Shown here piece by piece: positions 51,871-64,000 of a stretch of DNA of 64,000 nt (positions are counted from its first letter, which is position 1; each line of letters opens with the position of its first letter). The stretch is taken from positions 187,133 to 251,132 of IMG/VR virus record IMGVR_UViG_3300031417_000403; one strand, 5' to 3'. Made by a program: the position numbers and the translations under genes. This DNA is from a virus. Its lineage: Duplodnaviria; Heunggongvirae; Uroviricota; Caudoviricetes. The notes under the pieces were generated by a model. That model was not told where the DNA came from, ran no database searches, and worked only from the letters and a program-made list of their open reading frames with translations.

Positions 51871-51871
51871 G

Positions 51872-51907
51872 AAATATAAGCATTAGCTGACAAATAAGGA
51901 AATGCAA
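51872..51907 (+). promoter_or_regulatory. conserved ~36-nt motif (copy 2) preceding ATG-...-TAG leader of HD gene
   Basis: aaatataagcattagctgacaaataaggaaatgcaa. Confidence 0.45.
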
Positions 51908-51943
51908 ATGAACGCTCATCACCTCTAGGTTCTCCGCGAAAAG

Positions 51944-52468: not shown

Positions 52469-52470
52469 TC

Positions 52471-52770
52471 ATGACGAACTTCAACTCCAAAGAAACCTAC
52501 CTGGCTGCCCGCGCTGAATGGAAAGCTAACTACAATCGCCTGACGGAAGAATCGCGCAAGCTGCGTCAAGAATTCAAGGACGCTGCGAGCCTGTTCGGCA
52601 AGACGTCGTACCGCGATCACACCGCATACTGGGCTAACTATCGTGCGGCTGAAGCTCTGCGCGAACAGCGCGATGCACTCCGCCGCGAAGCCAACGTAGC
52701 ACTGGCTGATCTGTTCGCGATGAAGGAAGAAGCGGCAGCACAGTGGGAAGCTGCTCGCGCTCTGGCATAA
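52471..52770 (+). CDS. hypothetical helical protein (99 aa)
   Basis: ORF track. Confidence 0.5.
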   Translation: MTNFNSKETYLAARAEWKANYNRLTEESRKLRQEFKDAASLFGKTSYRDHTAYWANYRAAEALREQRDALRREANVALADLFAMKEEAAAQWEAARALA

Positions 52771-52809
52771 CGCGAAAAATGACATTTCGGCAACAGTAAA
52801 TAGAATATA

Positions 52810-52852
52810 ATTCTGGATGCTGTTGCCGTACTGTAACATTGTTATTTTGTCA
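52810..52852 (+). terminator. hairpin cggcaacag...ctgttgccg followed by T-rich tract
   Basis: 9-bp inverted repeat with 23-nt loop then gtactgtaacattgttattttg. Confidence 0.35.
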
Positions 52853-52871
52853 ACGTTGACGAGATTCATGG

Positions 52872-52877
52872 TACAAT
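52872..52877 (+). promoter_or_regulatory. promoter -10 variant TACAAT
   Basis: catggtacaatggttc. Confidence 0.4.
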
Positions 52878-52914
52878 GGTTCTTTGGCATCTAACCATCA
52901 CTAAAGGACCTATC

Positions 52915-53223
52915 ATGAAACGAGAAAAAGAAGTTGTCGAACGACTGTGGTACAAGGCAAAGCTGTCGCCGGTTGCGGCTGGACTATTCACTGACGCTTT
53001 CTACCCAACACCAAAACGTGGGACGGGAGCGCAGTATGTTTTCTTCACGCAGATCGACACAACTCCGAGCCAGCAAAAGGTTATCATCGCATCCAAGCTA
53101 AACGAAGCTGGACTGCGCATGATGACACGTGACCTGGCTCAGAAATGCCTCATCCCTGGCGACAAGGCAACTAAAGCGGAAATGGCTCAGTTGAACGAGC
53201 TGTCCAAAAATCTCAAGCTCTAA
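52915..53223 (+). CDS. hypothetical protein (102 aa)
   Basis: ATG after ggtacaatggttc...aaggacctatc. Confidence 0.5.
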   Translation: MKREKEVVERLWYKAKLSPVAAGLFTDAFYPTPKRGTGAQYVFFTQIDTTPSQQKVIIASKLNEAGLRMMTRDLAQKCLIPGDKATKAEMAQLNELSKNLKL

Positions 53224-53239
53224 ACTTTGAAAGAAAACA

Positions 53240-53416
53240 ATGGCCACATTGAAAATTAAAATTCAGCCTTTTGAAATACCTGAACACGTTTACATCGAAG
53301 TTCCTGGTGATGCTGCACCTGTTGCAGTCGCGCTTGGGGAACTCGACGAAGACACTCTCAGCACCATGATCGAAGAATTTGTTGCCGGCATCATGGCAAA
53401 GACGGGGCGCGAATGA
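53240..53416 (+). CDS. small hypothetical protein (58 aa)
   Basis: ORF, ATGA overlap with next. Confidence 0.35.
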   Translation: MATLKIKIQPFEIPEHVYIEVPGDAAPVAVALGELDEDTLSTMIEEFVAGIMAKTGRE

Positions 53417-53715
53417 CTTCCATCGTCCAGATTCTCATCGACAAGTGGGAAGGTAACCCATCCGGCCTTCGCGAGGATTACCGCAACAAGCTCAAGCATG
53501 GTAGCTGGATTGTCGAGTTCACGAAGAAAGACGGTACACCAGCCGTCATGGAGTGCACTCTTGACGAAAGGCTTCTGCCTGAATCGGAACGAGAACTCGA
53601 AGCTCGCACCGAACAAAATCACCTCCTCCACGTCTACTCGCTCGACCGTCAGGGTTGGCGCAGCTTCATCGTTGACAACGTCAAAGCATTTTACCGTAAG
53701 CCTGACGTATCATGA
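53413..53715 (+). CDS. hypothetical protein (100 aa)
   Basis: ORF track. Confidence 0.5.
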   Translation: MTSIVQILIDKWEGNPSGLREDYRNKLKHGSWIVEFTKKDGTPAVMECTLDERLLPESERELEARTEQNHLLHVYSLDRQGWRSFIVDNVKAFYRKPDVS

Positions 53716-54056
53716 CTGACGCATTCAATAACATTCTGACAAAGCGCAAGAAGTTGAAAGAAGAACTCATCGCCAAGTACGGCGAAAACTTCGATCAGCC
53801 AGCGCGCATCATCCGCGTACTCGACGCGGAAGAGCAAGTCATTCGCCAATGGCTTGAAGAACTGAAACCGGAAATCATGGCCATCCAAGGACCGGGTCCG
53901 CTCGGCGATGATGAACCGTACTACGGTGCGATTGGCGGCGGAGTGACATACAGCTTCACGCCAACAGGTCTCGGCTACATTCTCGTAGTCAAAGAAGCAA
54001 CCACTGGAAAAGAACTCAACGTCACGCAAGCGCTTGACTGGTACTTTTTCGACTAA
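53712..54056 (+). CDS. hypothetical protein (114 aa)
   Basis: ORF track. Confidence 0.5.
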   Translation: MTDAFNNILTKRKKLKEELIAKYGENFDQPARIIRVLDAEEQVIRQWLEELKPEIMAIQGPGPLGDDEPYYGAIGGGVTYSFTPTGLGYILVVKEATTGKELNVTQALDWYFFD

Positions 54057-54071
54057 TCAAGGAAACACATA

Positions 54072-54398
54072 ATGCAAATCAAAGGTATCAAACTCACAAC
54101 CGGCGACGAGCTGGTGGCAAAGGTCGTGTCGGAAAATCCTGATGGCACTCTGACTGTGCAAGACCCGCTCATGATGGTTATGCAGATCGTGCCGAAGTCC
54201 AAAGAAAATCCTGAAGGCGGAATGGTCTGTCAGTTCTATCCATGGACCATCATCAACGAAGGCGACATCGTTCTGCAAACTGCAGGCATCATGGCCCACT
54301 ACGCAGTGCCACGCGACGTTGAACAATCTTACAACCAAAACACGAGCGGTCTTCAGATCGTATCGGGCGCAGCGGCACAGCAAATCCTTCATGGCTAA
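54072..54398 (+). CDS. hypothetical protein (108 aa)
   Basis: RBS aaggaaacacataATG. Confidence 0.5.
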   Translation: MQIKGIKLTTGDELVAKVVSENPDGTLTVQDPLMMVMQIVPKSKENPEGGMVCQFYPWTIINEGDIVLQTAGIMAHYAVPRDVEQSYNQNTSGLQIVSGAAAQQILHG

Positions 54399-54630
54399 TA
54401 CCGAAATGACGTTGCCGGAAATCTTCGTCCAGCTGCCTGAAGAAATTCAGGCAGCGCTCGAATCCGCATTGGAGCGAAGCACGTTGCCGCTCGATCCAAC
54501 AAAGAGCGAAATATTCGTGGCAACGGAAGTGGTTGTGTTTGACCTGAAGTATCGTTTTCCGATGGCTTCTCAACGAGTGGTAGAATTGCTCGACATGGTT
54601 CCACAAGCGGTTGCAAATCTTCTGTCTTGA
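54392..54630 (+). CDS. hypothetical protein (79 aa)
   Basis: ORF track. Confidence 0.4.
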
Positions 54631-54668
54631 TAAATAGAACCATTGTCGTTCAATAATCCAGGATTCAA

Positions 54669-55325
54669 ATGAAACTCACAGACCTCGTTGTACAAGAAGC
54701 AGCTCCACTCGGAGATGACCCAGTTGAACTCAAAGACGTTGTCGAGTTCTTCCCGTCACAATACAAGAAAGCAATCAAGGCCTTCGCAAAGAAAGGTCGC
54801 CTTCGTTTCGGTGGCGACGAACTGTTCACATCGGATGGTGAACACGGTCCTGCACTGGATGACGCAATCCGTGTTGCCCAGCGTTTCCTGAAACACGAAC
54901 CGATCAATGTCGAAGTTGAGTTCAACACGGCTGGAACTGATCTTCCGGAACCAAGCGACCGATCATTCGAAATCGAATGCGATGTAGAAGAGTCAACCCC
55001 AGTATGGGTTGGCTATGACACGAAGCAGGATATGCTTCTGCTCGGGTTTGACGTCTGGATCGGTGACAACGAGTTCAACGACGAATGGGACAACAAGTTC
55101 GAAGATGCATTCGGTGAAGGCTTTGACCAGGACAATGAAGACCACGACAAGGTGTTCGACAAAGCCTGGAAGACGTTCAGCAACGGGCAAATGTTCTACG
55201 GAGCAATTGTCCAGGTGAATGCTGGCGGCCACGCTGAAATGGAAATGCCGATCATGGATGGCGGATTCTACCGTGGCCCATTCAAGCACCTCAGCAAAAC
55301 CAACGTGATCGAACTGAACGGTTAA
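54669..55325 (+). CDS. acidic hypothetical protein (218 aa)
   Basis: ORF track. Confidence 0.55.
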   Translation: MKLTDLVVQEAAPLGDDPVELKDVVEFFPSQYKKAIKAFAKKGRLRFGGDELFTSDGEHGPALDDAIRVAQRFLKHEPINVEVEFNTAGTDLPEPSDRSFEIECDVEESTPVWVGYDTKQDMLLLGFDVWIGDNEFNDEWDNKFEDAFGEGFDQDNEDHDKVFDKAWKTFSNGQMFYGAIVQVNAGGHAEMEMPIMDGGFYRGPFKHLSKTNVIELNG

Positions 55326-55327
55326 TC

Positions 55328-55561
55328 ATGACTCCAGAAGAGCGTATCGCAGAACTTGAAAAAGAAGTGAAGTGCCTGACCCGGCTAGTAAAGGAGATGG
55401 CAGCTCGCGAGAAAGTAACTACGGCCAGGTTAGCATCGGTCGCACGTGAGCACGCTTCTACTGCCAAGGACGTGAAAGCCCTTGACACTGCTGCAAGAAA
55501 ATCTGATGCGAAGATTGCACAGGTTCATGCATCAGTCCAACGTGTAGCAAATTCGCGTTGA
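55328..55561 (+). CDS. hypothetical coiled-coil protein (77 aa)
   Basis: ORF track. Confidence 0.45.
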   Translation: MTPEERIAELEKEVKCLTRLVKEMAAREKVTTARLASVAREHASTAKDVKALDTAARKSDAKIAQVHASVQRVANSR

Positions 55562-55760
55562 AGAAAATATGGAAGTTTTGAAAATTCCCATATATAACTC
55601 TACTATGACAAACAAACTGAAGGAACTATCTTCCGTGAAAACTCTCTCCACCCTCGCCTTGCTGACATCACTCCCTTCGGGTAGTGGGTATGTCTGCGCG
55701 CCTGCGGTGTACGGTAGTATGAGGTCCCTGATGTAAGTTCAGTCGATAGACTAGAATCCA

Positions 55761-55796
55761 AAAGGGACCCAACGCGAGTTTGGTCCCTTTTTCTTT
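55761..55796 (+). terminator. Rho-independent terminator
   Basis: aaagggacc caacgcgagttt ggtcccttt followed by ttctttat. Confidence 0.6.
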
Positions 55797-55835
55797 ATGG
55801 TTCAAAAAAAGTTGTACAAGTTTAGATTGACCTGG

Positions 55836-55841
55836 TAGAAT
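55836..55841 (+). promoter_or_regulatory. promoter TAGAAT-GCTTTCCTCG subclass (tandem 1 of 3 upstream of tRNA array)
   Basis: ggtagaatgctttcctcg. Confidence 0.5.
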
Positions 55842-55913
55842 GCTTTCCTCGACTGACTGATCGCGACAGCGAAAAGCCGGTTGCAAAAAGATGTACAAGT
55901 TCGGAAAACATGT

Positions 55914-55919
55914 TATAAT
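55914..55919 (+). promoter_or_regulatory. promoter TATAAT-GCTTTCCTCG subclass (tandem 2 of 3)
   Basis: tgttataatgctttcctcg. Confidence 0.55.
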
Positions 55920-55990
55920 GCTTTCCTCGTTTGACGAAACAAACTGAGTGATGAACGAAAAATAAATCACACAGACTTCGAAAAACACGG

Positions 55991-55996
55991 TATAAT
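55991..55996 (+). promoter_or_regulatory. promoter ggtataatgatt subclass (tandem 3 of 3)
   Basis: cggtataatgattaaaacc. Confidence 0.5.
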
Positions 55997-56359
55997 GATT
56001 AAAACCAAACTGCACAAAACGCTGCAGTACGAAACTGGTCTTTAACAATTTAGATGCCAACAGCTCACGCTGAAAGCAACAAGAGTTCCTGGATGTGCTG
56101 ACGCACCGATGGATGAAACCTCAATGCTGTGAACGTCGCAGTAAGCCCGTCAGGGCGAGACGAACAGTTATAGGGGCCGTACACAGTATGGTTGATTAGT
56201 AGTTTTGTCGTTCGCGACCGAATGTCAATCGTTACCTACATAATGGCCATAAAGCTACTTGTCGCCACTTCAGCGTGAGCAAAACTGAACTGTTAGCAAA
56301 ACGTTACCCGTACGACGCTTTAGTCTATGCGGATACTTAGTACCCTAACAGTTCGATTT

Positions 56360-56435
56360 GGTTCCTTAGCTCAGCTGGTAGAGCGGATGCCTTACAAGCA
56401 TTAGGTCGCAGGTTCGACTCCTGCAGGAACCACCA
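56360..56435 (+). tRNA. tRNA-Val (anticodon TAC), CCA encoded
   Basis: acceptor ggttcct/aggaacc, anticodon loop cttacaa. Confidence 0.8.
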
Positions 56436-56448
56436 AATCAATATGCAC

Positions 56449-56535
56449 TGTCGATAGTTCAAGTGGTAAGAACAGCTATACATTAGCGCATGAAAGGTTC
56501 AACTCCTTTCTCGCACAGTGCATATTGATTTGGTA
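56449..56535 (+). repeat. 12-bp inverted repeat (caatatgcactg/cagtgcatattg) enclosing a degenerate tRNA-like core
   Basis: core has D-arm gttc aagtggtaa gaac and T-arm aaagg ttcaact ccttt but no valid anticodon arm. Confidence 0.45.
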
Positions 56536-56633
56536 CACTGGAATGGTAAACATGGCCGAGTAAATCGGCCGGTGTGAGACGGACAGATAAAGCTGCGACG
56601 CTTTTAACAGTGTGCTTTAAATTCGTTGTGATG

Positions 56634-56639
56634 TATAAT
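56634..56639 (+). promoter_or_regulatory. promoter extended -10 tgtataat
   Basis: TGn-TATAAT. Confidence 0.5.
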
Positions 56640-56662
56640 TCTCTCATCAACTGGAGAATATT

Positions 56663-56887
56663 ATGGCAGACGTCAGGGTAACAGCAGCATTCGCACAAGC
56701 GATTGATCTTACGATCGAAAAGTTTTCGGATCACTTCGACGGCAAAGCTGAACAAGTAAAACGTCTGCTTCACGCAGACATGACCAAGTTTGAAATTGCG
56801 GCAGCGCTTCAATGTGCTGGCGTAAAAAATCAAAGCGATCTTGCACAAGCAATTCTGAATTGTGCTCGTCGAATTTTGAAGTGGTAA
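56663..56887 (+). CDS. hypothetical protein (74 aa)
   Basis: ATG after tgtataattctctcatcaactggagaatatt. Confidence 0.45.
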   Translation: MADVRVTAAFAQAIDLTIEKFSDHFDGKAEQVKRLLHADMTKFEIAAALQCAGVKNQSDLAQAILNCARRILKW

Positions 56888-56895
56888 CACATTTT

Positions 56896-56978
56896 GTACG
56901 TCCTATCCTTGGAGAGATAAGCTGCCTGTAAAGCAGTGGCCTTTGGCTGAACTGGTTCGATTCCAGTGGCGTGCACCA
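56896..56978 (+). tRNA. tRNA-Tyr-like (anticodon GTA, long variable arm), CCA encoded; acceptor with 2 G-U pairs
   Basis: anticodon arm gctgc ctgtaaa gcagt; variable ggcctttggctga; T-arm actgg ttcgatt ccagt. Confidence 0.5.
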
Positions 56979-57091
56979 TAATCAAAGCGTACTCTTGTAG
57001 TCCCGTCCATCAGGACGACCCGAATCGCGTGGACAAAGGGAACTCAATGAGTTTAGTGTAAGCAGCACACTTGAGTGCGCTTTGATTATGG
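56976..57091 (+). repeat. 14-bp inverted repeat (ccataatcaaagcg/cgctttgattatgg) bridging the 3' end of one tRNA and the 5' end of the next
   Basis: arms overlap CCA of upstream tRNA and first G residues of downstream tRNA; ~88-nt interior with hairpins. Confidence 0.45.
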
Positions 57092-57160
57092 GGTGTTTAC
57101 AGGGGTAGGCGCTGCACTTGCACTGCGGTAGGAGGGGTTCGAGTCCCCTACGCTCCACCA
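57090..57160 (+). tRNA. short tRNA-Ala-like (anticodon TGC, G3-U70), reduced D-arm, CCA encoded
   Basis: acceptor ggggtgt/acgctcc with G3-U70; anticodon arm ctgca cttgcac tgcgg; T-arm agggg ttcgagt cccct; only 71 nt. Confidence 0.45.
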
Positions 57161-57165
57161 GATTT

Positions 57166-57239
57166 GCCCGCGTAGCTCAATGGCAGAGCGCTGCATTGAC
57201 ATTGCAGATACAGTGGTCCGATTCCACTCGTGGGTACCA
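57166..57239 (+). tRNA. tRNA-Val (anticodon GAC)
   Basis: acceptor gcccgcg/cgtgggt, anticodon arm ctgca ttgacat tgcag. Confidence 0.7.
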
Positions 57240-57336
57240 GAATTCGCGAAGCTACGTAGCAATACGTGGCCAGACACAGCACGATGAAGAACGTTGAAAA
57301 AATACGAGTTAGTCGTCGGAGTGCTGTGACAGATAT

Positions 57337-57428
57337 GGAGGATAGGCTGCAAGGTGCAGACGCGGACTTGAAATCCGTCCCACTGGGGCCAACCCTCGGT
57401 GAGGGTTCGATTCCTTTATCCTCCGCCA
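57337..57428 (+). tRNA. tRNA-Ser (anticodon TGA), long variable arm
   Basis: acceptor ggaggat/atcctcc G73; anticodon arm gcgga cttgaaa tccgt. Confidence 0.75.
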
Positions 57429-57450
57429 AGTTTATATTTTGGAGAATGTG

Positions 57451-57687
57451 ATGGACGCAAAAACGCTGTTCAAGAAGTTACGCTTCGACGCGGAGTTCGG
57501 TACCAGTGAAGATACTCCGCGACCGATCATGACACATGGATCGCAAAGTCGTCAATCAGATTTTGCCACAGGCAAACGCCCAGGGCGTTTTGCACATCTC
57601 ACGAACGACTACATCGACAGTCTGTCCGATGCAGAACTCGAACGTGAAATGGTAACGTTTATCTATCGCTGTTTTCAACAGCGGTAA
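57451..57687 (+). CDS. hypothetical protein (78 aa)
   Basis: RBS ggaga before ATG. Confidence 0.45.
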   Translation: MDAKTLFKKLRFDAEFGTSEDTPRPIMTHGSQSRQSDFATGKRPGRFAHLTNDYIDSLSDAELEREMVTFIYRCFQQR

Positions 57688-57694
57688 CGAATTT

Positions 57695-57770
57695 GGGGGA
57701 TTAGCTCAGCTGGGAGAGCGGGTGCTTTGCAAGCATCAGGTCAACGGTTCGATCCCGTTATCCTCCACCA
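57695..57770 (+). tRNA. tRNA-Ala (anticodon TGC)
   Basis: canonical; G3-U70; loop tttgcaa. Confidence 0.85.
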
Positions 57771-57957
57771 AGTTTGCTGTATACGTTATGGACAAAAGAC
57801 GATCGTAATTCGATTGTGAAGGACGTGCGTGTACAGCGATCAAACGCAGGGTGCCAGTTTAGGCCGGATTAAAAAATCCCTGGATGGCTCGTCGATTTCC
57901 GCTTGACCGAGTACCGTATTAGAGACGTGGTCACCTCTAATAGCTATTGACCACTAT

Positions 57958-58097
57958 GGAGTTGTAGGGAATTGGAAAACCCACGTAAACATCGATTGCA
58001 AATCTTTGTTGTTTCTACAACCGCTCGCTAATTGGTTATCCACTGTAAATGGCGCGCCTCTGGCTTAGGTAGGTTCGAATCCTACCCAACTCCACCA
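57958..58097 (+). tRNA. long tRNA-like gene A (140 nt): tRNA acceptor/D/T arms plus ~65-nt conserved insertion (ATTGGTTATCCACT-GTA-AAT)
   Basis: acceptor ggagttg/caactcc, D-arm ggg aattggaaaa ccc, T-arm gtagg ttcgaat cctac, CCA; interior paralogous to the 59423 and 61502 genes. Confidence 0.45.
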
Positions 58098-58105
58098 GAA
58101 TTCTT

Positions 58106-58179
58106 GCGGGTATAGCTCAATGGTAGAGCTGAAGCCTTCCAAGCTTAAGACTGGGGTTCGATTCCCCATACCCGCTCCA
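58106..58179 (+). tRNA. tRNA-Gly (anticodon TCC)
   Basis: acceptor gcgggta/tacccgc U73; loop cttccaa. Confidence 0.8.
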
Positions 58180-58284
58180 TCATTTAAGGTCTTTGACGGA
58201 CTAGTCATCCGCTGTGGCGAAATACCGGTAGACTGCTGGAAAAGTAGTTATACACGACTTCACCCTAAGACACTGGGTGTTGAA

Positions 58285-58375
58285 GCAGAGACCTCAAATG
58301 ATGGAACCGTTGTTAATTGGTTATCAGGTGAAATACTGGCTTCGGTCAGTTAGAGGGTGTCGAATCCGCTCAGAC
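58285..58375 (+). repeat. degenerate copy of the ATTGGTTATC insertion module
   Basis: gaaccgttgttaattggttatcaggtgaaatactgg...gggtgtcgaatcc. Confidence 0.35.
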
Positions 58376-58491
58376 CGTGAAAACGGTTGCCTCTCAGAGG
58401 ACATTACCGATTGACGCTTTTTGTTCCTCTCTTTTTCGAGTGTTGGTGAGCTGGACATTTTGTTACCCAGTCGAACACTCTTTTTAACAAT

Positions 58492-58570
58492 GCCCACGTA
58501 CGCAATTTGGCAAAGCGGCGATGCTCAAAACATCGTGATTCTGCCGGTTCGACTCCGGCCGTGGGTACCA
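58492..58570 (+). tRNA. tRNA with anticodon CAA but short variable arm (non-canonical for Leu)
   Basis: acceptor gcccacg/cgtgggt, anticodon arm cgatg ctcaaaa catcg, T-arm gccgg ttcgact ccggc. Confidence 0.5.
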
Positions 58571-58575
58571 ACAAT

Positions 58576-58658
58576 GCGCCAGTAGATAATGTGAATTGGT
58601 ACAACTGACTCGTTTAGAGCGAGTAACCTTGTGGGTTCGAGTCCCACCTGGCGCACCA
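58576..58658 (+). tRNA. tRNA with anticodon TAG, enlarged D region and short variable arm (non-canonical for Leu)
   Basis: acceptor gcgccag/ctggcgc, anticodon arm actcg tttagag cgagt, T-arm gtggg ttcgagt cccac. Confidence 0.5.
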
Positions 58659-58670
58659 AACAAAAGTGAT

Positions 58671-59126
58671 ATGAAGAATATAACCGATGAAATGCTGACT
58701 GAAGCAGTAGCAGCGAGCACGACGTTCCGCGAAGTGCTTCGCAAGCTCGGCATCAAAGAAGCAGGCGGATCGCACGGCCACTATACGCGTCGTGCTAAAA
58801 ACCTCGGTCTCGACATGAGTCACATGCTCGGTAAGTCTTCATCATCTGGTAAGATTAGCCACAAACGAAAATATGCTGCAGACATTCTTGTGAAGCGAGA
58901 AAGCGGCGGTCGAGCAAAAGCAGAACAGCTTGTCAGAAGTTTGTTGGAAATTGGTAGGAAACATGAGTGTGAGAAATGCGGACAACTGCCTGAATGGCAC
59001 GGTCATCCACTGACGCTTGACGTCGATCACATCAATGAAGATTGGCTGGACGATCGTGCTGAGAACTTGCGGTTCTTGTGCCCGAACTGCCATAGTCAGT
59101 TAAGCAGACGTTTGATTCAAAAATAA
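58671..59126 (+). CDS. HNH homing endonuclease
   Basis: LDVDHINEDWLDDRAENLRFLCPNCH. Confidence 0.7.
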   Translation: MKNITDEMLTEAVAASTTFREVLRKLGIKEAGGSHGHYTRRAKNLGLDMSHMLGKSSSSGKISHKRKYAADILVKRESGGRAKAEQLVRSLLEIGRKHECEKCGQLPEWHGHPLTLDVDHINEDWLDDRAENLRFLCPNCHSQLSRRLIQK

Positions 59127-59127
59127 A

Positions 59128-59170
59128 ATTCAGCTTGTCGAAGAACAGTGTATAATGCTTGCTCTTCGAC
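59128..59170 (+). promoter_or_regulatory. 12-bp hairpin (gcttgtcgaaga/tcttcgacaagc) with -10 gtgtataatgctt in its loop
   Basis: terminator-like stem with TATAATGCTT subclass promoter inside. Confidence 0.45.
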
Positions 59171-59191
59171 AAGCTTTGAGAATACTTAGTT

Positions 59192-59262
59192 GCGGGTAGG
59201 GCCTGGTCACCAGCAGGGTCTCATAAGCCTTCGCCATCACACGTTCGAATCGTGTACCCGCT
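59192..59262 (+). pseudogene. tRNA-like pseudogene (CAT anticodon loop, defective D-arm, no CCA)
   Basis: acceptor gcgggta/tacccgc, anticodon arm agggt ctcataa gcctt, T-arm cacg ttcgaat cgtg. Confidence 0.3.
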
Positions 59263-59422
59263 ACTAAGTGTTTTTAAGAATGCTCGGCCGTACTTAATGC
59301 GGCACGCTTGAAATGAAGCCACGCATGACTGCCCACCGCGAAAGCGGTGCAAGGAGGAAGGTTGTGGTAGCAAGCATCAGCGATGGATAGTGATCCATTA
59401 CGAACTGCTAGAGTTCGACAAT

Positions 59423-59553
59423 TGAGGTGTAGTGTAAGGGTTAGCACGCGAAAAACATCGATCGCGCATTTTTGTTCAGCAATGAACCGCCCTGTGATTG
59501 GTTATCCACTCATAAAGGCGAAGATCCGGTTCGAGTCCGGACGACCTCAGCCA
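59423..59553 (+). tRNA. long tRNA-like gene B (131 nt) with conserved insertion (ATTGGTTATCCACT-CAT-AAAGG)
   Basis: acceptor tgaggtg/gacctca, D-arm gtg taagggttag cac, T-arm tccgg ttcgagt ccgga, CCA; D-stem covaries with gene A. Confidence 0.45.
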
Positions 59554-59574
59554 AGTTTATTGTGAAGCTGTCAT

Positions 59575-59700
59575 CCAAAATAGTAACCGCTTGCTTATTG
59601 GTTATCTACTTTTACTATGATGAAAAACCGAGAGGGTTCGATTCCCTTAATGTGCAGTGGTCAAGGGCACAATTCCCGATAGCTACTTTTGTTGCTATTT
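59575..59700 (+). repeat. 5'-truncated degenerate copy of the long tRNA-like gene
   Basis: aaccgcttgcttattggttatctacttttactatg...gagggttcgattccctt. Confidence 0.35.
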
Positions 59701-59722
59701 TGAATGACAGTTTCTGTTTTAT

Positions 59723-59797
59723 CGGAGTGTAGTCCAGTGGTAGGTCGCATGGTTTGGGACCATGAACTCGCAGGTTCGATTCCTGCCACTCCGACCA
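59723..59797 (+). tRNA. tRNA-Pro (anticodon TGG), copy 1
   Basis: acceptor cggagtg/cactccg, anticodon arm catgg tttggga ccatg. Confidence 0.8.
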
Positions 59798-60165
59798 ATT
59801 TATGGAGGATGCTATGACATCGCTAAACGCAACAAGGGTCAACCACGTACGTCTGTAAACGGCGTCAGTAAGAAATTCAAACGGATGGCGGAGTTATACA
59901 AATACTTCGCTCGACATTGGACAGGGTTAGACTTCAGCGATGAAGCATTACTCGAAATGTTCAACAGCGAATCTTATGGCACGAGAGTGAATCCGAAAAA
60001 CGGATACCTCATCGGCAAAGGTTACTTGAACATGACAGTGACATCCTGGAAAGAAGACATTGCACTCGGCACCTTGTTTGTCAAGGAACTGTATGCTGAT
60101 GGAAATTTTCCAGAATGGTGGCTCGACGGAATCTTCCAAGATTCGCCGGGCTACAAAGATAGAAT
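59798..60165 (+). mobile_element. insertion between duplicated tRNA-Pro genes carrying one ORF (59884..60175)
   Basis: both copies begin atcggagtgtagtccagtggtaggtcg; the ORF ends with TAG inside copy 2. Confidence 0.4.
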
Positions 60166-60175
60166 CGGAGTGTAG
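59884..60175 (+). CDS. hypothetical protein (97 aa) carried on the inter-tRNA-Pro insertion
   Basis: first in-frame ATG after tRNA copy 1; TAG stop. Confidence 0.35.
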
Positions 60176-60240
60176 TCCAGTGGTAGGTCGTCTGGTTTGG
60201 GACCAGAAACTCGGGTGTTCGATTCACCCCACTCCGACCA
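60166..60240 (+). tRNA. tRNA-Pro (anticodon TGG), copy 2
   Basis: acceptor cggagtg/cactccg, anticodon arm tctgg tttggga ccaga. Confidence 0.8.
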
Positions 60241-60245
60241 ACTTA

Positions 60246-60321
60246 GGCGAGGTAGCTCAGCGATTAGAGCGGCCGTCATTGCGACGGAGGTACGGTGGTT
60301 CAAATCCACCCCTCGCCACCA
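60246..60321 (+). tRNA. atypical tRNA (probable anticodon TTG, with A33 and C37)
   Basis: acceptor ggcgagg/cctcgcc, anticodon region gccgt cattgcg acgga, T-arm ggtgg ttcaaat ccacc. Confidence 0.45.
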
Positions 60322-60355
60322 AGAATTCGCGTTGATAGACGTATAAATACCCTCT

Positions 60356-60862
60356 TTGAGGAGCGTCTATCAAATGGCAAGAAATAAAATTGAAGTAACG
60401 AAAGAACAAATTGAATGGGCTTTAACGCAAAGTAATTCTGCGAAAGCTGCTTCAGATGTGATAGGATTATCCTTTATGACGTTCAAGCGACGTTGTAAAG
60501 AGTTTGGCTTGTACGCACCGAATCAAGGTTTGAAAGGTACGAAGAAGCCAAATCCAAAGTGGGAGATTCCACTTGAAAAGATTTTCAGCAACGAACACTT
60601 CATGACTGGCGCTGCCATCAAGAAGAAAATGTTGAAAGCAGGATTATGGACCGACGAGTGTTCCGAATGCAAACAGCCGCCCATGTGGAACGGCAAGAAG
60701 CTAGTTTTGCAGGTAGATCATATCGACGGTGATAAAACGAACAACGCGCAATCCAACCTCAGATTGCTATGTCCAAACTGCCATACGCAGACACATACCT
60801 TTTCGAAGGGCAAGTTCAGAACCAAAGCGGTTGTGGCGGAACTGGTAGACGCGTTAGGTTGA
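60356..60862 (+). CDS. HNH homing endonuclease (3' end overlaps tRNA-Leu)
   Basis: LQVDHIDGDKTNNAQSNLRLLCPNCH. Confidence 0.7.
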   Translation: MRSVYQMARNKIEVTKEQIEWALTQSNSAKAASDVIGLSFMTFKRRCKEFGLYAPNQGLKGTKKPNPKWEIPLEKIFSNEHFMTGAAIKKKMLKAGLWTDECSECKQPPMWNGKKLVLQVDHIDGDKTNNAQSNLRLLCPNCHTQTHTFSKGKFRTKAVVAELVDALG

Positions 60863-60913
60863 GGGCCTAATGCCCGAAAGGGCGTGTGGGTTCGAGTCCC
60901 ATCATCCGCACCA
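60827..60913 (+). tRNA. tRNA-Leu (anticodon GAG)
   Basis: class II; anticodon arm ttagg ttgaggg cctaa; variable tgcccgaaagggcg. Confidence 0.75.
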
Positions 60914-61103
60914 GAATATGGTGTAAGAACTTGTTCATGTGCGAGTACGTGTAACTGCCATCAGTCCGGTTATGCTTCCGACGCCTTGACTGTTCAACAG
61001 AGGACTAGTGCGGTACAATGGGAAATGCATAGGTTGGTAGCCGTCGCATATACTCCTCGTACTCAGGAGAATCTGATTGAGACAACATGAACAAACGAAC
61101 AAT

Positions 61104-61178
61104 GTCGCGTTAGCCCAGTGGTAAGGTCACGGATTGCAAATCCGATGTTCGGGGGTTCGATTCCCTCACGCGACTCCA
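61104..61178 (+). tRNA. tRNA-Cys (anticodon GCA)
   Basis: acceptor gtcgcgt/acgcgac U73; loop ttgcaaa. Confidence 0.75.
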
Positions 61179-61184
61179 AGTTTG

Positions 61185-61250
61185 ACAACCGACATGCATT
61201 GGTTATCTCGGAAAAATCTCCGATGCAAACTCTTTTGTTGTCATATAATT
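61185..61250 (+). repeat. degenerate ATTGGTTATC module fragment
   Basis: caaccgacatgcattggttatctcggaaaaatctccgatgc. Confidence 0.35.
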
Positions 61251-61252
61251 AT

Positions 61253-61354
61253 GCAGTGCCCATTGTCTGGGTGTAATGTCAGTCTGGTAGACGGCCTTGT
61301 TTGGAACGAGGAGGGCGCTGGTTCAAATCCAGCCACCCAGACAATGGGCACTGC
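61253..61354 (+). repeat. 21-bp perfect inverted repeat (gcagtgcccattgtctgggtg / cacccagacaatgggcactgc) enclosing a tRNA-like core
   Basis: inner 7 bp of each arm form the acceptor stem of the enclosed tRNA-like gene. Confidence 0.5.
61267..61341 (+). tRNA. tRNA-Pro-like (TGG loop) embedded in a 21-bp extended stem, no CCA
   Basis: acceptor ctgggtg/cacccag, anticodon arm ccttg tttggaa cgagg, T-arm gctgg ttcaaat ccagc. Confidence 0.4.
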
Positions 61355-61418
61355 GAATGAGTAAGTCCACATGAGATGACGCGTCGTCTCTTAACGGGTA
61401 TTGCCGGGTGGCAACTAT

Positions 61419-61493
61419 GCAGGTGTAGCTCAGCGGTAGAGTCTTTCGTTGCCAACGAAAATGTCGAGGGTTCGAATCCCTTCACCTGCTCCA
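61419..61493 (+). tRNA. tRNA-Gly (anticodon GCC)
   Basis: acceptor gcaggtg/cacctgc U73; arm tttcg ttgccaa cgaaa. Confidence 0.8.
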
Positions 61494-61501
61494 GTTTTAA
61501 T

Positions 61502-61638
61502 GTAGAGGTAGCTCAGTCTGGCAGAGCGACCGCCTCGTCGAAAGACACCTGTTTGCGCAACTTGTTGACAAACGTCAACCGAATGTGAATAGTTATCCAA
61601 GCAGTATGTCGTAGGTTCGAATCCTACCCTCTACACCA
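61502..61638 (+). tRNA. long tRNA-like gene C (137 nt) with variant insertion (AATAGTTATCCAAGCAGTATG)
   Basis: acceptor gtagagg/cctctac, D-arm gctc agtctggc agagc, T-arm gtagg ttcgaat cctac, CCA; internal hairpin gttgac aaac gtcaac. Confidence 0.45.
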
Positions 61639-61644
61639 AACCCG

Positions 61645-61690
61645 CTTGCAGCGTGCTGCAAGCTCGCTCCTGAACACGAGCGCTTTCAAA
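61645..61690 (+). terminator. tandem hairpins (cttgcagc gt gctgcaag; gctcg...cgagc)
   Basis: two perfect stems followed by ctttcaaaaagg. Confidence 0.35.
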
Positions 61691-61701
61691 AAGGTTCCGA
61701 T

Positions 61702-61787
61702 GCGGGTATAGCTCAGATGGTAGAGCACTTGACTTCCAATCAAGAGGCGAATAGTTTACGCAGGTTCGAATCCTGTTACCCGCTCCA
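61702..61787 (+). tRNA. tRNA-Gly (anticodon TCC) with ~11-nt insertion in variable region
   Basis: acceptor gcgggta/tacccgc U73, arm cttga cttccaa tcaag, variable aggcgaatagtttacg. Confidence 0.6.
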
Positions 61788-61898
61788 TATCAAAGCCCAC
61801 TGAATAGTGGTTGCGTCGAAAGACGGCAAGAATTCAACGCCTGCAGCGTGACCTCGCCCATTCGTGGTCAAGTGAATTCATTCAGTAGGCTTTGATAT
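61788..61898 (+). repeat. ~20-bp imperfect inverted repeat (atatcaaagcccactgaat / attcagtaggctttgatat) enclosing ~70 nt, abutting tRNA-Ser
   Basis: inverted-repeat arms directly seen; interior hairpins cgtc gaaa gacg. Confidence 0.45.
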
Positions 61899-61988
61899 GG
61901 AAGTATGGCAGAGTGGTCTATCGCGCCATCTTGGAAAGGTGGTGACTGGTAAAAAGGTCCGTGAGTTCGAATCTCACTACTTCCGCCA
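61899..61988 (+). tRNA. tRNA-Ser (anticodon GGA)
   Basis: class II, G73; arm ccatc ttggaaa ggtgg. Confidence 0.8.
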
Positions 61989-61995
61989 AAAATAC

Positions 61996-62086
61996 GGGGA
62001 TATGGGCAAATTCTGGTAAAGTCGCCACGTTCAGACCGTGGAGCCGCGAAAGCGTATTGTGGGTTCGAATCCCACTATCCCCACCA
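61996..62086 (+). tRNA. tRNA-Leu (anticodon CAG)
   Basis: class II; arm ccacg ttcagac cgtgg. Confidence 0.8.
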
Positions 62087-62096
62087 AGTTTCAATG

Positions 62097-62171
62097 CCCG
62101 AGGTAGCTCAGCGGTAGAGCAGGCTCCGTTATGGGAGCTGTGCGCTGGTTCGAATCCAGCCCTTAGGCCCA
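62097..62171 (+). tRNA. atypical tRNA (C3-A70 mismatch; 6- or 8-nt anticodon loop gttatg; TAT/Ile candidate)
   Basis: acceptor cccgagg/ccttagg, stem gctcc/ggagc enclosing gttatg, T-arm gctgg ttcgaat ccagc. Confidence 0.4.
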
Positions 62172-62193
62172 AGTTTTTATTGGGAGTTGTTAT

Positions 62194-62476
62194 GAAGCTA
62201 CGCAACATCTATCTCGGCTTCAAGGATCAACTGCCTTTAAGCCGCATGTGGCGGAACGTACGGAAAGGCGGGTTCGGTTGCTTCTGGCATCCACGAACAC
62301 ACGAACGATCTGACGGCCAGCCAAAAATAATGTACAATACCAGAGCTAGTGCAGTGAAAGCTGCGGCAGCGATGGAAAAGAAAACGGGTAACGCGTTCGG
62401 TAAATGGAAGTGCTGGCGATGCGATGGTTATCACATCGGCAAGAACTCTCCAAGCAACAACGAACAAGCACCGTAA
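62194..62476 (+). CDS. hypothetical Cys/Trp-rich protein (94 aa)
   Basis: RBS gggag before ATG; 5' ORF extension overlapping tRNAs is an artefact. Confidence 0.45.
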
Positions 62477-62483
62477 AGATTTT

Positions 62484-62559
62484 GCCGGTTTAGCTCATCT
62501 GGTAGAGCACTTGATTTGTAATCATGGGGTGGCGGGTTCGAGTCCTGCAACCGGCACCA
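62484..62559 (+). tRNA. tRNA-Thr (anticodon TGT)
   Basis: acceptor gccggtt/aaccggc; loop tttgtaa. Confidence 0.75.
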
Positions 62560-62565
62560 AGTTTC

Positions 62566-62639
62566 GCCCCACTAGTTCAATGGTAGAACAGGAGCTTTGT
62601 AACCTTCAAACGTCAGTTCGATTCTGTCGTGGGGCACCA
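62566..62639 (+). tRNA. tRNA with TGT anticodon loop (second Thr-like; C31-C39 mismatch)
   Basis: acceptor gccccac/gtggggc; arm ggagc tttgtaa ccttc. Confidence 0.5.
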
Positions 62640-62815
62640 AGTTAAGAAGAGGCGTCGTGGAAAGCAAGGTCTCAGGCATGGGATTCGGACACGATTGACG
62701 GATGGACTGTTCCCGGTGCACCGGCGCATTAAACAGATGATGGCGTAGCGACCATCCCTTTTCTTGCAAGTTCAAATGACAGCATAAATAGTCTACACAA
62801 AATGTGAGGACGTGT

Positions 62816-62821
62816 TATAAT
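62816..62821 (+). promoter_or_regulatory. promoter TATAAT-GCTTTC subclass upstream of toxin-antitoxin pair
   Basis: tgttataatgctttcattg. Confidence 0.5.
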
Positions 62822-62850
62822 GCTTTCATTGACAGACAACGAGGTACACC

Positions 62851-63030
62851 ATGGCTAACAAAACTACTCTGATCGCTGAAGTCGCACTGCGCGAAGCTAT
62901 CGAAGCAGATGACAGTGGCCTGGACAAAGAAGTGCTTTTCGAAGCTGTGCAAGTCAAAGAAGAAGACTTGTCGGCGCCGGTTGATGGTGCGACTCTTCTG
63001 ATGCAGTTGGCGCAGGAAGGTCTTCTGTGA
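62851..63030 (+). CDS. small acidic protein, putative antitoxin
   Basis: ATG after gttataatgctttcattgacagacaacgaggtacacc; overlaps toxin start (GTGA). Confidence 0.45.
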   Translation: MANKTTLIAEVALREAIEADDSGLDKEVLFEAVQVKEEDLSAPVDGATLLMQLAQEGLL

Positions 63031-63371
63031 AAGTAGAATTTCGACGTAGTCAGCTGTTCAATCAGACGCTGGCGAAGCACAAAGGTATCGCAAATAAACT
63101 TGCTGAATTCATTCAGTTCAAGACGAACGATCCTATGGCAAGATTTGGAAAGAAGGACCAGCACTTTGCTGGTGGCGACTTGGGCGAGACTGGGTTAATC
63201 CATGCTCACTTGACGAACGACATCAGCGTATTGTATCGCCGATCAGGACGAGACCCAACGTACATCGACCTGATAGCATTGCTGACGCATGATGATTTGG
63301 GAACGGGTAATCCGCCGAATCAGAAGCAGCAACGCAAGATGGCGAAAGTGTTGAGCAATGAAAAGGTTTAA
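63027..63371 (+). CDS. RelE/ParE-superfamily toxin (YafQ-like)
   Basis: GLIHAHLTNDISVLYRRSGRDPTYIDLIALLTHDDL resembles YafQ C-terminal catalytic region. Confidence 0.5.
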   Translation: MKVEFRRSQLFNQTLAKHKGIANKLAEFIQFKTNDPMARFGKKDQHFAGGDLGETGLIHAHLTNDISVLYRRSGRDPTYIDLIALLTHDDLGTGNPPNQKQQRKMAKVLSNEKV

Positions 63372-63379
63372 AGATCAAT

Positions 63380-63453
63380 CGCGGGGTAGTGTAAGTGGTG
63401 GCACATCGGGCTCATAATCCGAAAGACTGGTTCGATTCCAGCGACCGCAACCA
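63380..63453 (+). tRNA. initiator tRNA-fMet (anticodon CAT)
   Basis: cgcgggg...gaccgca-A-CCA with C1-A72 mismatch; anticodon arm tcggg ctcataa tccga. Confidence 0.65.
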
Positions 63454-63456
63454 AAT

Positions 63457-63623
63457 TTGTTGTTAGTGTAGTGGCCCATCACGCTCTAGCAGGGTAGGTA
63501 GACTGTTCAATTCAGCTCACGGTTAATGATCCCATCGGGTCGCATGCAACCCACACTCGATCAACCGGCATGGTGACCGTAAATCCGCATAGAGAAACGC
63601 TGGTTCGAATCCAGCACGACAAA
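63457..63623 (+). tRNA. long tRNA-like gene D (167 nt): ~100-nt insertion within anticodon-stem region, no CCA
   Basis: acceptor ttgttgt/acgacaa, D-arm gtg tagtggcccat cac, T-arm gctgg ttcgaat ccagc; long-range pairing ctcta (63486) with tagag (63598). Confidence 0.4.
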
Positions 63624-63633
63624 TGAAGAACAT

Positions 63634-63723
63634 GGAGAATTAACTATTCAGGGAATAGGACCGCCTGCTAAGCGGATCGCCTGGCTTCGGTCGGGTACGG
63701 TTCGAGTCCGTAGTTCTCCGCCA
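63634..63723 (+). tRNA. tRNA-Ser (anticodon GCT)
   Basis: class II, G73; loop ctgctaa. Confidence 0.75.
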
Positions 63724-63800
63724 AGTTGTAGCAAATGTTGTGGCCTGTCAGGTAAGCCCCTCACGATACTGTTAAATGCGTGGAAGCTGGCAACGAATTT

Positions 63801-63890
63801 GGAGGATAGGTATGCTGGGCATTAACGACTCTCGAAAGGTCGCCCGCTTGGTGTTCCCAGGCGATGGTTCGATTCCATTATCCTCCGCCA
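63801..63890 (+). tRNA. tRNA-Ser (anticodon CGA)
   Basis: class II, G73; arm cgact ctcgaaa ggtcg. Confidence 0.75.
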
Positions 63891-63897
63891 TTACACT

Positions 63898-63982
63898 GGG
63901 TCGTGAGCAGCACTGGCGACTGCAGCGGACTGTAAATCCGCCGCCTCTGGCATACTTGGTTCGACTCCAAGACGACCCACCA
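63898..63982 (+). tRNA. tRNA-Tyr (anticodon GTA)
   Basis: class II; arm gcgga ctgtaaa tccgc; acceptor gggtcgt/acgaccc. Confidence 0.8.
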
Positions 63983-64000
63983 GAAAGAGCAACCCGTTGA

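Follow-up and report, generated by a model that had tools for sequence, protein, structure and literature searches.

Long inverted repeats in a phage tRNA array

The locus described here lies in a stretch of 64,000 nucleotides (hereafter, the window) of the IMG/VR virus record IMGVR_UViG_3300031417_000403 (positions 187,133 to 251,132), and belongs to a 375-kb metagenomic contig (k141_1209711 of ENA ERZ27247433) from an uncultured phage of the Caudoviricetes. A tRNA array runs from 56.3 kb to the end of the window, entirely on the + strand, and consists of at least 25 tRNA genes, a few small open reading frames (ORFs) and two free-standing HNH ORFs. The subject of this report is a set of long inverted repeats that flank or bridge tRNA genes of this array. 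Four of them, with arms of 12-21 bp between positions 56449 and 61898, had been pointed out in an earlier note made from the sequence alone, which proposed processing platforms for RNase III or RNase P, miniature mobile elements or decoy tRNA-like structures as their possible nature.

All four repeats are present in the sequence, with arms that are longer than had been supposed, namely 19-24 bp over the elements found. Specifically, the pairs at 56432-56534 and 56976-57091, given as 12 and 14 bp, have arms of 20 and 19 bp (100% and 95% complementary), that at 61253-61354 has 21 bp (100%), and that at 61784-61901, given as about 20 bp at 61788-61898, has 22 bp (95%). Three additional repeats lie inside the same interval (58176-58305, about 59178-59275 around a tRNA-Met-like gene, and 59564-59714) and one lies beyond it, at 48334-48447, so that the total amounts to seven in the tRNA array of about 8 kb plus one at 48.3 kb (Table 1).

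When only Watson-Crick repeats of at least 16 bp, with no more than one mismatch and a loop of 40-170 nt, were counted, the window held six, while 100 block shuffles gave 0.08 on average and never more than 1, and five of the six were located in the 8.2-kb tRNA array. Per 10 kb, the array has about 6 repeats, tRNA arrays of other phages have 0.62 and viral loci free of tRNAs 0.09, which makes the array about 10 times denser than other such arrays and about 70 times denser than tRNA-free viral DNA. The repeats are therefore concentrated in the tRNA array, and do not occur throughout irrespective of tRNAs, a distribution that would have argued against any link with them. In addition, each element is predicted to fold into a long stem topped by a three-hairpin head, with z-scores from -4.4 to -9.5. 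From the strict enrichment, the densities and the fold z-scores, we conclude that the repeats are real, far above chance and tied to the tRNA array. The element at 48334-48447 lies outside the array, in the 5' untranslated region of ORF 48473-48937 and about 0.9 kb upstream of the tRNA gene at 49363, and its architecture matches that of the array elements.

Stable intergenic hairpins might act as intrinsic terminators or attenuators that split the array into transcription units, and the element at 56432-56534 does end a block and is followed by a promoter-like TGTGATGTATAAT upstream of ORF 56663. However, no long stem has a run of U after it or was picked up by the terminator scan; the loops consist of structured RNA of 60-110 nt, not of 3-8 nt; and two elements continue into the first nucleotides of the next tRNA. 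The absence of the long stems from the terminator scan led us to reject this function, which we consider extremely improbable.

Table 1. Positions of the long-stem elements, module-bearing RNAs and selected genes of the window
Positions	Strand	Feature	Arms of the long stem	Basis
16714-17754		RlaP-like nucleotidyltransferase		Pfam/PHROGs
19507-20856		ATP-dependent DNA ligase		Pfam/PHROGs
21827-22690		Metallophosphoesterase		Pfam/PHROGs
23036-23674		HNH protein		Pfam/PHROGs
23658-25088		RNA ligase with PHA02142 OB domain		Pfam/PHROGs
48334-48447	+	Three-hairpin RNA, 114 nt, 24-25-bp stem	48334-48357 / 48424-48447 (24 bp, 96%)	Minimum free energy (MFE) -64.6 kcal/mol, z -9.5
56432-56534	+	Long-stem degenerate cloverleaf directly after tRNA-Val(UAC)	56432-56451 / 56515-56534 (20 bp, 100%)	MFE -45.3 kcal/mol, z -9.3
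56895-56975	+	Class II tRNA-Tyr(GUA)-like gene, missed by ARAGORN		31.6 bits on the tRNA-Sec model (tRNA clan), cloverleaf fold
56976-57091	+	Spacer hairpin filling the whole gap between the tRNA-Tyr-like gene and tRNA-Ala	56976-56994 / 57073-57091 (19 bp, 95%)	z -6.4
57958-58097	+	tRNA-Tyr(GUA) with 54-nt insert 57986-58039 (A)		In silico insert removal, covariation
58176-58305	+	Spacer hairpin after tRNA-Gly(UCC)	58176-58195 / 58286-58305 (20 bp, 90%)	z -5.3
58303-58427	+	Module RNA with short P1, family of the elbow RNA (B)		MFE fold gives P1/P2
59178-59276 (ARAGORN 59191-59264)	+	tRNA-Met(CAU)-like gene without CCA	about 59178-59197 / 59257-59275 (about 19 bp)	z -4.45, tail ACTA
59423-59553	+	tRNA-Met(CAU) with 55-nt insert 59451-59505, same place in the anticodon stem as in A (C)		
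59564-59714	+	Elbow RNA (D-type): T-arm and D-arm elbow on the two-helix module	59564-59587 / 59691-59714 (24 bp, 88%)	Predicted fold, family alignment A4
61184-61242	+	Minimal free-standing module, 59 nt (E)		MFE fold gives P1/P2
61253-61354	+	tRNA-Pro(UGG), full cloverleaf without CCA, in a perfect 21-bp stem	61253-61273 / 61334-61354 (21 bp, 100%)	ARAGORN, Rfam, z -7.7
61502-61638	+	tRNA with 60-nt insert 61537-61596 in the anticodon loop (F)		50.2 bits on the tRNA model, large insertion
61784-61901	+	Spacer hairpin linking tRNA-Gly(UCC) to tRNA-Ser(GGA)	61784-61805 / 61880-61901 (22 bp, 95%)	z -6.75

Helices anchored at tRNA ends

Among annotated phages, no close DNA relative of the array was found: megablast matched single tRNAs only, and blastn with the tRNA-Tyr element gave no match. 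By protein similarity, the nearest of the annotated phages is an uncultured phage of 462 kb that is itself unannotated. A protein-seeded search in metagenome contigs returned no relatives, a 74-aa ORF of the array used as query in viral contigs retrieved one weak locus, and an exact-protein look-up gave as near relatives only copies identical to the window, one of them 100% identical across 46663-64000. Pattern searches of viral contigs did recover related tRNA arrays (L026, L053, L106, L113, L169, L253, L275, L277, L279 and others), and long-stem elements are present in these too, with helices of 16-28 bp. In L169 (10244-10425) a single perfect 19-bp stem surrounds two adjacent tRNA-like genes without CCA. 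In L053 (5299-5527) two successive long-stem elements share an overlap of about 10 nt, which implies alternative pairings.

In the window, the helices that have a tRNA directly upstream start, in four cases out of four, at N73 or C74 of its unpaired NCCA tail, the tail pairings being ACCA/UGGU, CCA/UGG and, twice, UCCA/UGGA. It is very unlikely that chance would extend a helix by 3-4 bp exactly to the tail boundary in all four. Two bridging helices, moreover, terminate at positions -1 to +3 of the following tRNA, the whole spacer being one hairpin. The first, at 56976-57091, had been described as overlapping the CCA of one tRNA and the 5' G-run of the next; it indeed spans the CCA of the Tyr-like gene and G1-G2 of the tRNA-Ala at 57090, with the upstream A76 pairing with the downstream -1 nucleotide, and C75 and C74 with G1 and G2. 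Its 19 bp include one U.G pair, and its three-hairpin head has no T-loop. In the second, at 61784-61901, U73-C74-C75-A76 of tRNA-Gly pair with A3-G2-G1-U(-1) of tRNA-Ser, within a helix of 22 bp with 1 mismatch and a degenerate tRNA-like head. The stem of the hairpin at 58176-58305 (20 bp, 2 mismatches) starts at the UCCA tail of the preceding tRNA. The heads of these three spacers have lost most tRNA features, and neither Rfam nor ARAGORN calls a tRNA in any of them or at 56432-56534. The tRNA-Gly(UCC) ahead of the second bridging hairpin (61702-61787) is 86 nt long and has an additional variable-region hairpin (GCG AAUAGUUUA CGC), which is unusual for a glycine tRNA.

At the position that matches 61784-61901, 5' of tRNA-Ser(GGA), the related array L106 has an element (1124-1239) with the stem core AGCCCA/UGGGCU in common and a true T-arm against the 3' strand. 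In a manually set register, about 11 stem positions of the two elements are changed on both sides with pairing retained.

Such compensatory retention also bears on the suggestion that the repeats are terminal inverted repeats of MITE-like miniature mobile elements inserting at tRNA ends. The repeats do bracket cores of 60-110 nt and abut tRNA ends, and the 5' arms of 56976 and 61784 have CCAUA(A)UCAAAGC in common. However, the flanks of the seven elements hold no target-site duplications, save a possible TGT at 59564-59714, and a direct-repeat search yielded tRNA T-arms, a promoter-like motif and the module described below, but no set of related arms or cores. No two stems have the same sequence, the tRNA-like cores likewise all differ from one another, and orthologs diverge through compensatory change, not through presence or absence of identical copies. 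No transposase lies nearby, the nuclease ORFs of the array being free-standing HNH genes only. The content of the distant relatives differs from that of the window, but the divergence is too great for an empty-site comparison to inform. On the grounds of target sites, repeat families, transposase and compensatory divergence we reject the mobile-element origin, and we regard it as very improbable.

CCA-less cloverleaves with extended acceptor stems

The earlier note described the 21-bp pair as an extension of the acceptor stem of a Pro-like tRNA lacking CCA, and this is borne out. The tRNA-Pro(UGG) at 61267-61341 scores 53 bits on the Rfam tRNA model and its 3' end reads ACAA, not ACCA. Its stem is composed of the 7-bp acceptor and a 14-bp leader-trailer duplex in which the trailer exactly complements the 14-nt leader, and its 5' arm begins about 10 nt past a TATAAT box (61244-61249). 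Likewise, the Met-like gene has a 16-bp leader-trailer extension that lengthens its acceptor stem to about 19-20 bp; in its L106 ortholog (5276-5374) the extension is kept with one compensatory change, C-G to U-A. Tested as canonical tRNAs, both genes pass cloverleaf scoring and fail on the 3' CCA and the single-stranded trailer.

The element at 56432-56534 has a 23-bp stem with one bulge, which starts at the ACCA tail of tRNA-Val(UAC). Its head contains a D-like arm (loop AAGUGGUAA), a mini arm (loop UACAU) and a T-arm (UUCAACU), and no CCA is encoded. In a related phage, a stem taking in the ACCA (L053 5299-5408) likewise follows tRNA-Val(UAC).

Extension and absence of CCA go together. CCA is encoded by each of the 23 conventional tRNAs scored in the window, and their leader and trailer pair over 0-1 bp, compared to 16-17 bp in the two CCA-less tRNAs called by ARAGORN; among the other phage-array tRNAs, a pairing of at least 8 bp was found in none of 455.

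The perfection of some of these stems raises the possibility of palindrome growth at the DNA level, in which the 7-bp acceptor-stem repeat would seed intrastrand template switching during replication, or quasi-palindrome correction, and the leader would be copied into the trailer up to a sequence under selection (the body of the neighbouring tRNA), giving perfect stems without RNA function. Four stems are perfect and free of G.U (61253-61354, 21/21; 56432-56534, 20/20; L169, 19/19; L026, 20/20), and each stem halts where more pairing would compete with the acceptor stem of the neighbouring tRNA. Moreover, the tRNA-Pro has ordinary homologs with CCA and no extension in three relatives (L106, L053 and L113), while here a sequence exactly complementary to its leader stands in place of CCA and trailer; the perfect stem at 61253-61354 must therefore be young. 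On the other hand, stems at matching positions in diverged phages differ yet still pair, and on the tRNA strand they tolerate G.U far above A.C, which requires selection on RNA. Other phage tRNA arrays also contain such acceptor-stem seeds, but the repeats are about 10 times denser here. Finally, loci with at least 8 tRNAs were taken as phage arrays; with the window counted in, they contain 147 CCA-less tRNAs, of which only the two of the window have an extension of at least 8 bp and the other 145 do not. Overall, palindrome growth is an unlikely explanation of the set as a whole.

An elbow RNA closed by a long stem

The element at 59564-59714 differs in its head. Its closing stem of 22-24 bp runs on into a helix P1 (..AAC/GUU..) and then a helix P2, and within the loop of P2 are a T-arm (GGGUUCGAUUCCC) and, after it, a D-like hairpin with an invariant UGG, the two arms of a tRNA elbow. 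Nine members of this type, from at least six huge-phage contigs, were aligned (alignment A4). The module words, the T-loop GUUCGAUUC and the UGG are invariant, and changes on both sides were observed in 27 of 33 pairs overall, including 19 of the 23 pairs of the long stem. Paired cells amount to 90.6%, compared to 61% in shuffles (none of 500 reached the observed value) and 35-45% with slid partners; the structure was derived from the same sequences, so these covariation figures are somewhat inflated, but the margin is large. By hand count, the long stem shows about 20 G.U and 5 A.C cells, an imbalance that points to the tRNA-sense strand as the one that folds.

The order of stem, helix, T-arm, D-arm, helix and stem corresponds to the permuted-tRNA layout of YrlA RNAs (RF02553). 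The element shares with YrlA a long stem formed by its ends, a permuted tRNA-like domain in which the T-arm stands ahead of the D-arm, and a phage-encoded position beside tRNAs. Unlike YrlA, it has no acceptor-like hairpin between T- and D-arms and shows another conserved stem sequence. No match to RF02553 was obtained on 59555-59725 at E <=10 (gathering threshold 69 bits), and the sole weak YrlA match, 24.7 bits against that cut-off of 69, falls across two adjacent ordinary tRNAs.

These features suggest an alternative in which the function resides in the heads. The closed RNAs would be stable tRNA mimics, Y-RNA-like RNAs or decoys that bind a protein, with the stem as a clamp or a protein-binding handle; candidate partners are a Ro/Rsr-like protein, a tRNA-modifying or tRNA-processing enzyme, or a host anticodon nuclease. 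In favour of it, the elbow features are kept in the whole family, the module beside the stem resembles a protein-binding site in having nucleotides and a G.U pair that never vary, and T-arms lie beside the 3' strand also in 56432-56534, L106 1124-1239, L169 10436-10539 and L053 5399-5527. In addition, none of these RNAs encodes CCA, and they are therefore not chargeable as transcribed. The part of the earlier decoy proposal that stands is that the heads are tRNA-like or tRNA-derived and without CCA. Nevertheless, besides the differences from YrlA noted above, the three spacer heads are without any tRNA features, the scanned ORFs of the 64-kb window (of the 375-kb genome) include no TROVE/Ro gene, and a stoichiometric decoy would probably be weak against a catalytic nuclease. 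We consider a function of the heads as the sole explanation rather unlikely.

A two-helix module shared by the elbow RNA and interrupted tRNAs

The module on which the elbow is mounted (AACCG...UUGGUUAUC) recurs in the array. Five exact copies of the word TTGGTTATC exist in the window, each within the array and on its + strand, and the module both closes the elbow RNA and forms inserts of 54-60 nt in the anticodon arms of three tRNAs. It consists of P1 (..AAC/GUU.., with a U-rich strand before GUU), a CG linker, and P2 (..AUUGG/YCGAU.., with an invariant G.U pair) followed by UUAU(C); the linkers of the inserted form are NAAACA and UUAU. Two copies in the window are free-standing. The first, B (125 nt), has P1 GGAAC/GUUCC, a P2 of 11 bp and several hairpins in the P2 loop, including a degenerate T-arm. 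The second, E, has P1 GACAAC/GUUGUC, P2 GCAUUGG/CCGAUGC and a 17-nt loop, and begins 5 nt past the CCA of tRNA-Cys. Many free-standing copies in related phages likewise begin 5-12 nt past a tRNA CCA.

The inserted module is a circularly permuted form in which P1 is closed by a loop. In tRNA-Tyr the insert lies in the 5' strand of the anticodon stem, and the joined flanks give CG+CCA opposite UGGCG with the loop CUGUAAA. In F the anticodon loop reads CUC|..|CCAA and, once joined, would read Gly CCC; its P2 carries two compensatory changes, AAUAG/CUGUU replacing AUUGG/YCGAU. Once the flanks are joined, the anticodon stem has its 5 bp and the loop its 7 nt again, and ARAGORN then calls tRNA-Tyr and tRNA-Met, neither of which it calls in the genomic sequence. 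Since ARAGORN accepts several removal lengths, this in silico splicing supports the boundaries, though not to the exact nucleotide.

Further copies of the insert were sought with a strict pattern, as looser ones drowned in chance matches and in ordinary tRNA D-loops containing UUGGUUA. The strict pattern retrieved 26 stretches in IMG/VR. Genuine interrupted tRNAs, beyond those of the window, account for 22-23 of them and lie mostly on contigs of about 50-370 kb. Applied to 185,579 genomes of bacteria and archaea, it gave 65 stretches, none of them followed by a T-loop, and thus no interrupted tRNA. When 27 inserts, drawn from about 20 viral contigs, were aligned (A5), 97.8% of the P1 and P2 cells were paired and 45 cells showed two-sided changes, compared to 11.8 in shuffles (none of 500 reached the observed value); one G.U pair is invariant in 27 of 27 sequences. 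By manual parsing, the 3' boundary of the insert is nearly always GGUUAU| and the 5' boundary lies 5-7 nt before P2. The insertion site lies in the anticodon stem (27/28 or 28/29) except for one subgroup, where it lies in the loop (34/35); some sites are ambiguous by 1 nt.

A group I intron was rejected as an explanation of the inserts: they are only 54-60 nt long, with two helices and no Rfam match, and a P3-P9 core of about 200 nt or more would be expected. Rfam over 48000-64000 at E <=1 returned tRNAs only, with no YrlA, ribozyme, GOLLD/ROOL or group I intron; specifically, no self-cleaving ribozyme (hammerhead, twister, pistol, hatchet, HDV-like or hairpin) was matched in that search or on 59555-59725 at E <=10. 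An archaeal bulge-helix-bulge (BHB) intron was also rejected for 57986-58039 and 59451-59505, where hand parsing places the two junctions on either side of a hairpin in the 5' strand of the anticodon stem, with the linkers NAAACA/UUAU, and not in two 3-nt bulges with a 4-bp helix between them.

The archaeal BHB is nevertheless an instructive comparison, as one endonuclease motif occurs both in tRNA introns and atop the long processing stems that flank rRNAs. In a similar way, the P1-P2 module is found both as an insert in tRNA anticodon arms and atop a stem of 20-30 bp, and the window encodes an RNA ligase. The differences are that the module lacks the 3-4-3 bulge-helix-bulge, that its inserts have the two junctions on one strand of the anticodon stem, and that the phage presumably infects a bacterium. 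A possible, if doubtful, view is that the module is the recognition element or the catalytic core of an undescribed splicing and processing system of huge phages, which would excise the introns, release the elbow RNA and rely on the RNA ligase for sealing. In such a single system, the module atop stems of 20-30 bp may release the elbow RNA, the other long stems may follow the same logic of double-stranded RNA processing, and the whole may be a functional analogue of the archaeal BHB system.

Introns in the tRNA genes of large phages have a precedent. In the Lak megaphages, 'enigmatic' tRNA introns of tens of nucleotides with no known splicing mechanism were described, and were considered possibly common in large phages (10.1101/356790). 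No shared structure or motif was given for those introns; here, by comparison with that description, the inserts have a covarying two-helix core and near-fixed boundaries.

The long helices as candidate processing platforms

The helices close three kinds of RNA, namely CCA-less cloverleaves, the elbow RNA on its module, and lineage-specific three-hairpin spacers. With mobile elements and terminators set aside, the sequence evidence leaves RNA helices on the tRNA strand that are maintained by selection. The explanation that we favour, and to which we give about an even chance, is that the repeats represent tRNA-sense RNA helices of 19-25 bp that close tRNA-derived RNAs and serve as processing platforms of the RNase III type. 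The array would be transcribed as a polycistronic RNA, and helices of about two turns would be cleavage platforms for a double-strand-specific endonuclease of that type. Cleavage would leave an excised RNA with paired, exonuclease-resistant ends, probably a stable product, and the helices would also clamp the ends of the RNA. Any function of the released RNA in trans would come in addition.

The geometry of the bridging hairpins is suggestive in this respect. RNase P would free the 5' end of the downstream tRNA, and the 3' end of the upstream tRNA would remain buried, with an overhang of at most 1 nt. Known 3' exonucleases are unable to enter a buried hairpin end with such an overhang, and we know of no other bacterial route to a free CCA end at the base of a 20-bp stem. 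By this argument of necessity, a cut in the stem by an enzyme of the RNase III type is proposed as the simplest way to release the buried CCA end. As for the earlier proposal of RNase III or RNase P platforms, the geometry fits, in that the helices are formed by the flanks over 19-25 bp, begin at the NCCA in four cases out of four and, in two, end at -1 to +3; cleavage itself is what the model would predict. In length, the helices correspond to RNase III stems, in which the flanks of a structured RNA pair over about two turns or more.

Precedents are the processing stems of bacterial rRNA and the maturation of phage T4 tRNAs, which depends on RNase III. As in the bacterial 16S and 23S rRNA precursors and in the scRNA of B. 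subtilis, the flanks of a structured RNA pair here over about 20 bp or more. In those stems both strands can be cut and the RNA is released from a longer transcript, which here would be the predicted outcome. Compared to them, the enclosed RNAs of the array are tRNA-like or T-loop RNAs of 60-110 nt, and the helix takes in the NCCA tail and the first nucleotides of the next tRNA. In the scRNA precursor, RNase III is reported to cut both sides of the flank-formed stem (PMC1935012).

Helices that guide the processing of tRNA-like ends are also found among eukaryotic nuclear RNAs. Murid herpesvirus 68 expresses units made of a tRNA and hairpins. In the MALAT1 mascRNA, a leader-trailer helix is present in the tRNA-like precursor (PMC8457004). 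In both, as proposed here, a helix beside a tRNA-like fold, or a hairpin fused to it, guides the processing of the ends by tRNA enzymes; unlike here, those systems are nuclear, use different enzymes and have much shorter helices.

Several observations weigh against the processing explanation. No RNase III gene was found among the approximately 55 ORFs of the window with Pfam or PHROGs; nor was a splicing endonuclease or a Ro protein, the proteins relevant here being an RNA ligase, an RlaP-like nucleotidyltransferase, a phosphoesterase and HNH proteins only. Several stems, namely 61253-61354 and 56432-56534, are perfectly Watson-Crick and lineage-specific, and these two could be young palindrome extensions at the DNA level rather than selected structures. 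The seven mismatches in the stems of the window itself comprise four G.U and three C.A on the + strand, which leaves the strand undecided. No homolog was detected for 56976-57091, 58176-58305 or 48334-48447, no search having been aimed at the last of these, and for this reason the three have no covariation support. Finally, a plain processing stem needs no conserved head, and the invariant T-loop and UGG of the elbow RNA suggest that this RNA, once released, has a function of its own. The explanations can be combined, with mutation creating stems and selection retaining those that work.

Other features of the window

ARAGORN missed, besides the Tyr-like gene at 56895-56975, a tRNA gene at 63381-63449 (36 bits on the Rfam tRNA model). 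A lone tRNA gene at 49363-49438, which follows a TATAAT-like box, has the anticodon CUA, of the amber-suppressor type; it is labelled Pyl by ARAGORN, scores 60 bits on the Rfam tRNA model and may indicate stop-codon recoding in the phage. A promoter-like word, (TG)TTATAATGCTTTC, recurs at 55830-55857, 55908-55935, 59145-59162 and 62810-62837, and also at 49323-49335 and 61240-61250. Its copies are located upstream of tRNA blocks and small ORFs and suggest multiple transcription starts inside the array.

Elsewhere in the window, a cluster of RNA/DNA end-repair genes occupies 16714-25088 (Table 1). Host-like metabolic and envelope genes for isocitrate lyase, an ABC transporter ATPase, a D-Ala-D-Ala carboxypeptidase and adenylosuccinate synthetase lie at 449-1726, 35651-36448, 38334-39149 and 45235-46530, respectively, and an OmpA-domain protein is encoded at 30548-32200.

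Implications

Processing helices formed by the flanks of an RNA are of a known kind; their setting in a phage tRNA array is unreported, and the module, which has no Rfam match, is well supported. Phage tRNA arrays are usually read as plain lists of tRNAs, and in this one about one third of the units are something else, namely tRNA-derived RNAs closed by helices of two turns, the conserved elbow RNA, and tRNAs that a small structured insert interrupts. Standard tRNA finders overlook at least four tRNA genes in the window, and the tRNA counts of huge phages are therefore probably too low. Should the helices prove to be processing platforms, several tRNAs of the phage would need a double-strand-specific nuclease in order to mature, and this dependence would be a point of control as well as a weakness. 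A role of the module as a splicing or processing signal would provide a mechanism for at least one class of tRNA introns of huge phages and, if true, this would be the first protein- or ribozyme-dependent tRNA splicing system besides group I introns in a bacterial virus.

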